A stretch of DNA of 64,000 nt from Escherichia coli (GTDB taxonomy: Bacteria > Pseudomonadota > Gammaproteobacteria > Enterobacterales > Enterobacteriaceae), in NCBI RefSeq assembly GCF_046105845.1, contig NZ_CP151004.1; one strand, 5' to 3'. Every line of letters begins with the position of its first letter. Position 1 is the first letter of the stretch. This document shows, one piece after another, positions 44,443 through 47,519 of this stretch. A model generated the notes under the pieces. That model worked only from the letters and a program-made list of their open reading frames with translations, did not search any database and was not told the DNA's origin. The position numbers and the translations under genes were made by a program.

Positions 44443-44595
44443 GTTCGTGTCTCCTGAAAAAAAATCGTTCTGAATAAGTGTAAACGCGCGATTGTACCAT
44501 TACCAATAGCGCTTTTACTATGTTGTGACCTCGGTTCCGGGAAACAAACCTGGCCAGACATTGTTACACAACACTCCGGGTAATGCATTCCAATA

Positions 44596-44611
44596 CTGTA
44601 TATTCATTCAG
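44596..44611. promoter_or_regulatory. LexA box shared by the divergent ssb and uvrA promoters
   Basis: CTGTATATTCATTCAG fits CTG-N10-CAG SOS box in the ssb-uvrA intergenic region. Confidence 0.85.
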
Positions 44612-44696
44612 GTCAATTTGTGTCATAATTAACCGTTTGTGATCGCCGGTAGCACCATGCCACCGGGCAAAAAAGCGTTTAATCCGGGAAAGGTGA

Positions 44697-47519
44697 ATGG
44701 ATAAGATCGAAGTTCGGGGCGCCCGCACCCATAATCTCAAAAACATCAACCTCGTTATCCCCCGCGACAAGCTCATTGTCGTGACCGGGCTTTCGGGTTC
44801 TGGCAAATCCTCGCTCGCTTTCGACACCTTATATGCCGAAGGGCAGCGCCGTTACGTTGAATCCCTTTCCGCCTACGCGCGGCAGTTTCTGTCACTGATG
44901 GAAAAGCCGGACGTCGACCATATTGAGGGGCTTTCTCCTGCCATCTCGATTGAGCAGAAATCGACGTCTCATAACCCGCGTTCTACGGTGGGGACAATCA
45001 CCGAAATCCACGACTATTTGCGTTTGTTGTTCGCCCGCGTTGGCGAGCCGCGCTGTCCGGACCACGACGTCCCGCTGGCGGCGCAAACCGTCAGCCAGAT
45101 GGTGGATAACGTGCTGTCGCAGCCGGAAGGCAAGCGCCTGATGCTGCTCGCGCCAATCATTAAAGAGCGCAAAGGCGAACACACCAAAACGCTGGAGAAC
45201 CTGGCAAGTCAGGGTTACATCCGTGCTCGTATTGATGGCGAAGTCTGCGATCTTTCCGATCCGCCGAAACTGGAACTGCAAAAGAAACATACCATTGAAG
45301 TGGTGGTTGATCGCTTCAAGGTGCGTGATGATCTTACCCAACGTCTTGCCGAGTCGTTTGAAACCGCGCTGGAGCTTTCCGGTGGTACCGCGGTAGTTGC
45401 GGATATGGACGACCCGAAAGCGGAAGAGCTGCTGTTCTCCGCCAACTTCGCCTGCCCAATTTGCGGCTACAGTATGCGCGAGCTGGAACCGCGCCTGTTT
45501 TCGTTTAACAACCCGGCGGGGGCCTGCCCAACCTGTGACGGCCTTGGCGTGCAGCAATATTTCGATCCTGACCGCGTGATCCAGAATCCGGAACTGTCGC
45601 TGGCTGGCGGTGCGATCCGAGGCTGGGATCGCCGCAACTTCTATTACTTCCAGATGCTGAAATCGCTGGCAGATCACTATAAGTTCGACGTCGAAGCGCC
45701 ATGGGGCAGCCTGAGCGCGAACGTGCATAAAGTGGTGTTGTACGGTTCTGGCAAAGAAAACATTGAATTCAAATACATGAACGATCGTGGCGATACCTCC
45801 ATTCGTCGTCATCCGTTCGAAGGCGTGCTGCACAATATGGAGCGCCGTTATAAAGAGACGGAATCCAGTGCGGTACGTGAAGAATTAGCCAAGTTTATCA
45901 GCAATCGCCCGTGCGCCAGCTGCGAAGGAACCCGTCTGCGTCGGGAAGCGCGCCATGTGTATGTCGAGAATACGCCGCTGCCTGCTATCTCCGACATGAG
46001 CATCGGTCATGCGATGGAATTCTTCAACAATCTCAAACTCGCAGGTCAGCGAGCGAAGATTGCGGAAAAAATTCTTAAAGAGATTGGCGATCGCCTGAAA
46101 TTCCTCGTTAACGTCGGCCTGAATTACCTGACACTTTCCCGCTCGGCAGAGACACTTTCTGGCGGTGAAGCCCAGCGTATCCGTCTGGCGAGCCAGATTG
46201 GTGCGGGCCTGGTTGGCGTTATGTACGTGCTGGACGAGCCGTCTATCGGCCTGCACCAGCGCGATAACGAGCGCCTGTTGGGTACGCTTATCCATCTGCG
46301 CGATCTCGGTAATACCGTGATTGTGGTGGAGCACGACGAAGACGCGATTCGCGCCGCTGACCATGTGATCGACATTGGTCCTGGTGCGGGTGTTCACGGC
46401 GGTGAAGTGGTTGCGGAAGGTCCACTGGAAGCGATTATGGCGGTGCCGGAGTCGTTGACCGGGCAGTACATGAGCGGTAAACGCAAGATTGAAGTGCCGA
46501 AGAAACGCGTTCCGGCGAATCCGGAAAAAGTGCTGAAGCTGACAGGCGCACGCGGTAATAACCTGAAAGACGTGACGCTGACGCTGCCAGTCGGTCTGTT
46601 TACCTGCATCACAGGGGTTTCAGGTTCCGGTAAATCGACACTGATTAACGACACACTGTTCCCGATTGCCCAACGCCAGTTGAATGGGGCGACCATCGCC
46701 GAACCGGCACCGTATCGCGATATTCAGGGGCTGGAGCATTTCGATAAAGTGATCGATATCGACCAAAGCCCAATTGGTCGTACTCCGCGTTCTAACCCAG
46801 CGACCTATACCGGCGTGTTTACGCCTGTGCGCGAACTGTTTGCGGGCGTACCGGAATCCCGTGCGCGCGGCTATACGCCGGGACGTTTCAGCTTTAACGT
46901 CCGTGGCGGGCGCTGCGAAGCCTGTCAGGGCGACGGCGTGATCAAAGTGGAGATGCACTTCCTGCCGGATATCTACGTGCCGTGCGACCAGTGCAAAGGT
47001 AAACGCTATAACCGCGAAACGCTGGAAATTAAGTACAAAGGCAAAACCATCCACGAAGTGCTGGATATGACCATCGAAGAGGCGCGTGAGTTCTTTGATG
47101 CGGTGCCAGCTCTGGCGCGTAAGCTGCAAACGTTGATGGACGTTGGCCTGACGTACATTCGCCTCGGGCAGTCCGCAACCACGCTTTCTGGTGGTGAAGC
47201 CCAGCGCGTGAAGCTGGCACGTGAGCTGTCAAAACGCGGCACCGGGCAGACACTGTATATTCTCGACGAGCCGACCACCGGTCTGCACTTCGCCGATATT
47301 CAGCAACTGCTCGACGTACTGCATAAACTGCGCGATCAGGGCAACACCATTGTGGTGATTGAACACAATCTCGACGTGATCAAAACCGCTGACTGGATTG
47401 TCGACCTGGGACCGGAAGGCGGCAGTGGCGGCGGCGAGATCCTCGTCTCCGGTACGCCAGAAACTGTCGCGGAGTGCGAAGCTTCGCATACGGCACGCTT
47501 CCTCAAGCCGATGCTGTAA
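44697..47519 (+). CDS. uvrA: Excinuclease ABC subunit UvrA
   Basis: ORF track 940 aa; two ABC modules with Walker A motifs and zinc-finger Cys clusters. Confidence 0.97.

Follow-up and report, generated by a model that had tools for sequence, protein, structure and literature searches.

In Escherichia coli K-12, a single SOS box is common to the divergently transcribed uvrA and ssb genes (Brandsma 1983 Nature 305:243 and 1985 NAR 13:5095, both as relayed in PMC9505508), an arrangement likewise described in PMC3323433 and PMC8072944, and PMC9505508 treats this box as a LexA binding sequence. The K-12 box has a published distance of approximately 170 nt to the ssb start and overlaps the -35 element of the uvrA promoter (PMC9505508). 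Three promoters have been described for ssb, of which LexA can repress only the most distal one, the other two being constitutive (Brandsma et al. 1985, in the account given by PMC9505508). The same account lists a heterology index of 6.98 for the box, taken from a reference cited there, and terms the site lower-affinity. Salmonella enterica, which belongs to a different genus, resembles E. coli in that the divergent ssb and uvrA genes also have one box in common (heterology index 6.99), both genes are induced by damage (uvrA 11.2-fold, ssb 9.6-fold) and basal ssb expression is LexA-independent (PMC8072944). More widely, a single LexA site common to uvrA and ssb has been described for E. coli and other Gammaproteobacteria, and Vibrionaceae in which the two genes are split are reported to retain independent LexA sites, one per gene (PMC3323433).

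The site analysed here is a textbook SOS box, identical to the K-12 site that has been studied since 1982-85, and it adds no new biology. Binding of LexA protein to the identical K-12 sequence was reportedly described by Sancar et al. in 1982, in Nature 298:96. In the window, i.e. the whole 64-kb stretch of DNA that was analysed, ssb (single-stranded DNA-binding protein, 178 aa; 43906-44442, minus strand) and uvrA (excinuclease ABC subunit A, 940 aa; 44697-47519, plus strand) were identified by their open reading frames and RefSeq annotation, and their products were identical to K-12 SSB and UvrA. RefSeq names both genes in an E. coli genome with a 100% identical spacer, where they are neighboured by soxR, soxS, pdeC and yjcB on one side and by yjbR and yjbQ on the other. 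The first-pass annotation had described a divergent ssb-uvrA region of approximately 250 bp, in good agreement with the 254 bp measured here (44443-44696). Compared to the 253-bp spacer of K-12 MG1655, the sole difference was one additional A in a run at 44457-44464 (A8 here, A7 in K-12), which directly precedes the ssb Shine-Dalgarno sequence (AGGAGA, minus strand). The comparison with the known uvrA/ssb operator, which had been proposed at first reading, revealed identical DNA and no substantial difference, the 20-mer, the spacer and the flanking proteins all corresponding to K-12. A 111-bp fragment carried by a published SOS-reporter plasmid (uvrA promoter-driven) was also identical to window positions 44535-44645. 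The experimental results obtained in K-12 therefore transfer directly to this locus. The window represents chromosomal DNA of E. coli, and the host strain itself is not K-12: the window was collinear with MG1655 at approximately 97.5% identity, with the als operon missing. This operon and the 5' part of rpiB (~6.8 kb, K-12 ~4,306,822-4,313,662) were replaced by ~209 bp of unrelated sequence (window 12075-12284).

The LexA operator was located at 44594-44613 (20-mer TACTGTATATTCATTCAGGT, assigned to neither strand), based on an exact match, the matrix score, conservation and K-12 identity, and we are highly confident that it represents the only LexA operator in the divergent control region between uvrA and ssb of E. 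coli. Its core 16-mer, CTGTATATTCATTCAG (44596-44611, plus strand), falls within the interval 44580-44700 in which the motif had originally been noticed; on exact recount it occurred once in 64 kb, and it was absent from all of 100 dinucleotide-preserving shuffles. The core is an imperfect palindrome with CTG and CAG triplets 10 bp apart and an AT-rich centre (TATATTCATT, with A or T at 9 of 10 positions). The distance between the last base of the 20-mer and the A of the uvrA start codon is 84 bp, and the far edge of the 20-mer lies 171 nt from the ssb ATG. The spacer holds exactly one operator with a divergent gene on either flank: the box can be regarded as single, as had been claimed, because the second-best matrix match in the spacer reached only 1.2 bits. 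The same value ruled out an additional, weaker LexA site in the spacer, which had also been considered.

The first-pass annotation had also suggested scoring the motif against a LexA position weight matrix, and the score proved not to be low. We used a symmetrised matrix built from the 18 boxes in Table 4 of PMC3009722, a set from which the uvrA/ssb site is absent. The 20-mer scored 17.1 bits and ranked third among the ~64,000 positions of the window, outscored only by the two boxes of lexA (61452-61471, 21.4 bits; 61431-61450, 18.8 bits), and the fourth-ranked match had 11.6 bits, approximately the mean of the chance maxima (11.1 ± 2.5). A score of 17.1 bits corresponds to P = 5.9e-7 per position, with 0.04 matches expected per 64 kb and 1.4e-4 per 254-bp spacer, and was attained in 2 of 200 windows simulated with a Markov-1 model. 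The training sites span 12.8-29.4 bits and the operator falls into the lower part of this range, in agreement with the published heterology index and the description as a lower-affinity site. The heterology index that we computed with the symmetrised 18-site set was 9.5, a value that is numerically not comparable with the published 6.98 and does not reproduce it because the reference site set differs. The loose pattern CTGT-N9-CAG was not above chance in the window (7 observed vs 5.5 expected), and the test must therefore use the whole motif.

The two higher-scoring boxes make up the autoregulatory double operator (61431-61471) of lexA (60816-61424, minus strand), which lies 16.7 kb from the uvrA/ssb operator and has dinF (59418-60797, minus strand) downstream of it. 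As the second lexA box has no place in the training set, it could be used as an independent positive control. The lexA operator is similar to the uvrA/ssb site in its CTG-N10-CAG spacing, in its AT-rich centre and in being recognised by the same matrix. It differs in that two tandem boxes lie just upstream of the start codon of one gene, whereas the uvrA/ssb site is one box associated with back-to-back divergent promoters.

Within E. coli, the spacer was present in 5425 of 5426 complete genomes, with at least 99% identity in 5410 records, and a 60-nt query centred on the box was 100% identical in 4519 of the 5426 records. Three variant strains were inspected, one of them with a spacer only 91% identical, and every substitution was located outside the box and the adjacent -10 element. 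We then aligned the window with seven further Enterobacterales spacers (E. albertii, Citrobacter, two Enterobacter spp., a Klebsiella sp. and two Photorhabdus; n = 8). The box had 12 invariant columns out of 20 compared to 32 of 225 in the rest of the spacer (Fisher p = 1.2e-5), the neighbouring TGtCATAAT was invariant in 7 of its 9 columns (p = 6e-5), and the most conserved 20-nt window of the alignment began at 44592. The LexA-contacting CTG and CAG triplets were invariant at a fixed spacing of 10 bp, and the weak right half-site (TCAG instead of ACAG/CCAG) was retained in all seven loci. The spacing between the box and the ssb ATG was constant as well (149-152 bp in six of the seven loci, Photorhabdus included). 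Photorhabdus cinerea displayed a ~120-bp insertion in the uvrA leader (L008 ~1350-1472), between the uvrA -10 and the ATG, which we take to resemble an ERIC/IRU repeat. In this species, the box and its 152-bp distance to ssb were unaltered and the distance from the box to uvrA had grown to 190 bp.

A strict scan of the spacer for sigma-70 promoters and terminators was negative, and the promoter geometry therefore rests on weak hexamers and extended -10 motifs together with the literature, which is also our source for LexA-dependent expression and for the three-promoter architecture. On the uvrA side, a relaxed scan gave a conserved candidate extended -10, TGtCATAAT (44621-44629, plus strand). 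The candidate -35, for which we infer either TATTCA (44601-44606) or TTCATT (44603-44608) on the same strand, would lie inside the LexA box, 15-17 bp upstream. On the ssb side, the candidate nearest to the box in the relaxed scan was an extended -10, TGtAACAAT (44568-44560, minus strand), which is conserved out to Photorhabdus and Klebsiella sp. as TGaAATAAT. This motif may correspond to the published LexA-controlled distal promoter of ssb. Its -10 hexamer (44565-44560) would place the box just upstream of the -35, and if TTGACC (44616-44611) were paired with a poor -10 instead, the box would fall in the promoter spacer. In Photorhabdus and Klebsiella sp., the same -10 lies 19 bp nearer to the box than in E. 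coli. Two proximal candidates were also obtained in the relaxed scan, TGgTACAAT (44499-44491, minus strand) and TTGGTA-N18-TACACT (44506-44477, minus strand); a TTGTA.CAT block in this stretch is conserved in Enterobacteriaceae, and the two candidates are putative counterparts of the LexA-independent ssb promoters. The Cappable-seq supplements that we searched for uvrA and ssb start sites contained no matching coordinates. The predicted RNA fold of the uvrA leader was no better than that of shuffled sequences (z = -0.43) and the spacer matched no Rfam family, and a leader RNA element was dropped from consideration on these two grounds. The leader also contains a 15-codon upstream open reading frame (44657-44704), which overlaps the uvrA ATG out of frame and has no obvious Shine-Dalgarno sequence; it is probably a chance occurrence, since the leader fold was no better than shuffled.

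According to the mechanism that we propose, a LexA dimer bound to the operator would repress not only uvrA but also the most upstream of the three ssb promoters, which fires in the opposite direction. Following DNA damage, RecA-ssDNA filaments would stimulate the self-cleavage of LexA, the operator would empty and both promoters would fire. The affinity of the operator is expected to be moderate and two more ssb promoters would lie between the operator and the ssb start codon, so that substantial basal expression of both genes would be predicted. Because the box overlaps the uvrA -35 and would govern only the most distal ssb promoter, uvrA would be the direct target, with moderate induction. 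Induction of ssb would come on top of a LexA-independent baseline, as only one of its three promoters is governed by LexA. The initial claim that one operator can confer SOS control on both genes was thus upheld by the score, the conservation, the K-12 identity and the literature, with the qualification that this control is asymmetric, being direct for uvrA and exerted on ssb through the most distal promoter only. In an annotation, uvrA should accordingly be described as directly controlled and ssb as only partly under SOS control.

The comparative data agree with this asymmetry, as across Gammaproteobacteria the box is associated with uvrA rather than ssb. We retrieved 80 gammaproteobacterial uvrA loci, seven of which were Enterobacterales with a divergent adjacent ssb. 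Of 79 loci, 18 had a box of at least 14 bits in the 300 bp preceding uvrA, compared to 0 of 79 controls from uvrA coding sequence, and at each of these 18 loci the box was the sole match that attained 12 bits or more across the 3.6 kb examined. The lineages concerned were Enterobacterales, Pasteurellaceae, Vibrio, Aeromonas, Psychromonas, Colwellia, Parashewanella and a Candidatus Enterovibrio. In only 24 of the 80 loci was ssb located within 1.5 kb upstream of uvrA, and in most loci the box lay 26-98 bp upstream of the uvrA ATG, irrespective of an adjacent ssb. Vibrio, Psychromonas and Colwellia carried strong uvrA boxes with no neighbouring ssb, and distant taxa retained CTG-N10-CAG though the remaining promoter sequence differed. 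The ssb gene of Aeromonas caviae, 1.25 kb away from uvrA, had no second box in its vicinity. Ten divergent ssb-uvrA pairs from other lineages (L029, L037, L047, L048, L052, L053, L056, L060, L062 and L063; spacers of ~170-520 bp) lacked a LexA box of the E. coli type within 300 bp of uvrA, and the gene arrangement is therefore more widespread than the common operator. Six Pseudomonas loci (L028, L030, L031, L032, L035 and L038) displayed an identical sequence, TAGTGTGCATCCATCCAGTA, 47-49 bp upstream of uvrA, with a score of 11.6 bits and GTG in place of the left CTG. It may be a degenerate conserved LexA site or the site of another factor.

We tentatively consider a refinement of the proposed mechanism, which is possible and in our view rather doubtful, namely that the box is primarily and ancestrally a uvrA operator. 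The TCAG half-site and the ~150-bp distance to ssb would then have been selected for intermediate occupancy, and the distal ssb promoter would perhaps be hit from just upstream of its -35 and not be covered. If this were true, the geometry of repression on the ssb side in E. coli would differ from that on the uvrA side and from that in Photorhabdus and Klebsiella sp.

An unlikely alternative is that the box functions as an operator of uvrA only and lies near ssb as a consequence of the divergent gene order, with no meaningful effect on the supply of SSB. The set distance to the uvrA ATG regardless of ssb, the ten divergent pairs lacking any box, the Aeromonas ssb with no box of its own and the two candidate ssb promoters downstream of the box would all be expected under this reading, and the expression data are divided. 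Induction of ssb has been disputed for decades (PMC9505508): no SOS induction of ssb was observed in three microarray studies and several protein-level studies, in the summary that PMC9505508 provides, and a tiling-array study that found uvrA to be induced by UV, this box lying upstream of the induced transcript, does not mention ssb (PMC3009722). By ddPCR, ssb transcript levels were equal in wild type and lexA3 during undisturbed growth and those of uvrA were ~30% lower in lexA3 (PMC9505508). By RT-qPCR in later work, however, ssb increased ~18-fold after UV and ~7-fold after gamma irradiation, both ssb and uvrA were UV-induced in wild type and not in lexA3(Ind-), and a lexA71(Def) background led to overexpression of ssb (PMC9505508). 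The 9.6-fold induction of ssb in Salmonella, the independent LexA sites reported for both genes in Vibrionaceae with separated genes and the constant spacing between the box and the ssb ATG in six of seven Enterobacterales loci also argue against an operator of uvrA only. Such an operator retains some weight because of the negative array and protein-level data and the comparative pattern, with the lexA3 and lexA(Def) data opposing it, and we continue to favour asymmetric control of both genes. For the uvrA side, we found nothing substantial that speaks against LexA control. A search of the literature for ChIP-chip data on LexA yielded a review only.

It is very improbable that the block owes its conservation mainly to a role as core promoter DNA, either as the uvrA -35 or as the site of another regulator such as ArcA, with an incidental likeness to a LexA box. 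The box does overlap the inferred uvrA -35, and an ArcA site is drawn in the same spacer (PMC9505508 Fig. 1). However, the invariant columns are the LexA-contacting triplets at their fixed spacing, CTG-N10-CAG is kept in distant taxa where other promoter sequence differs, and expression is genetically LexA-dependent (PMC9505508). The weakest explanation, a chance CTG-N10-CAG in AT-rich intergenic DNA with no regulatory role, fits the lack of enrichment of the loose pattern and the two simulated windows that attained 17.1 bits, but has a negligible probability given the ~1.4e-4 such matches expected in the spacer, the fact that no other block of the spacer is as conserved in Enterobacterales, the orthologous uvrA boxes in Vibrio, Aeromonas, Pasteurellaceae, Psychromonas and Colwellia with no match in coding controls, and the identity with an experimentally characterised K-12 site. 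Both of these explanations are effectively excluded, and the operator reading is retained.

Two weaker matrix matches elsewhere in the window were TATTGTTTTTCACGACAGTA (30822-30841, 11.6 bits), located in the acs/ytcB-nrfA intergenic region just upstream of nrfA, and GGCTGTTTTTTTATCCATTC (21916-21935, 11.1 bits), located between the 3' end of fdhF and yjcO. Neither is probably an operator, since their scores are at the level of the chance maxima. Rfam matches at the gathering score were obtained for the sRNA sraL (RyjA), which adjoins soxR (40502-40642), for the selenocysteine insertion element of fdhF (SECIS_2; 20151-20205) and for a REP-derived naRNA4 element (2528-2608), all of which are expected for this region of E. 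coli.
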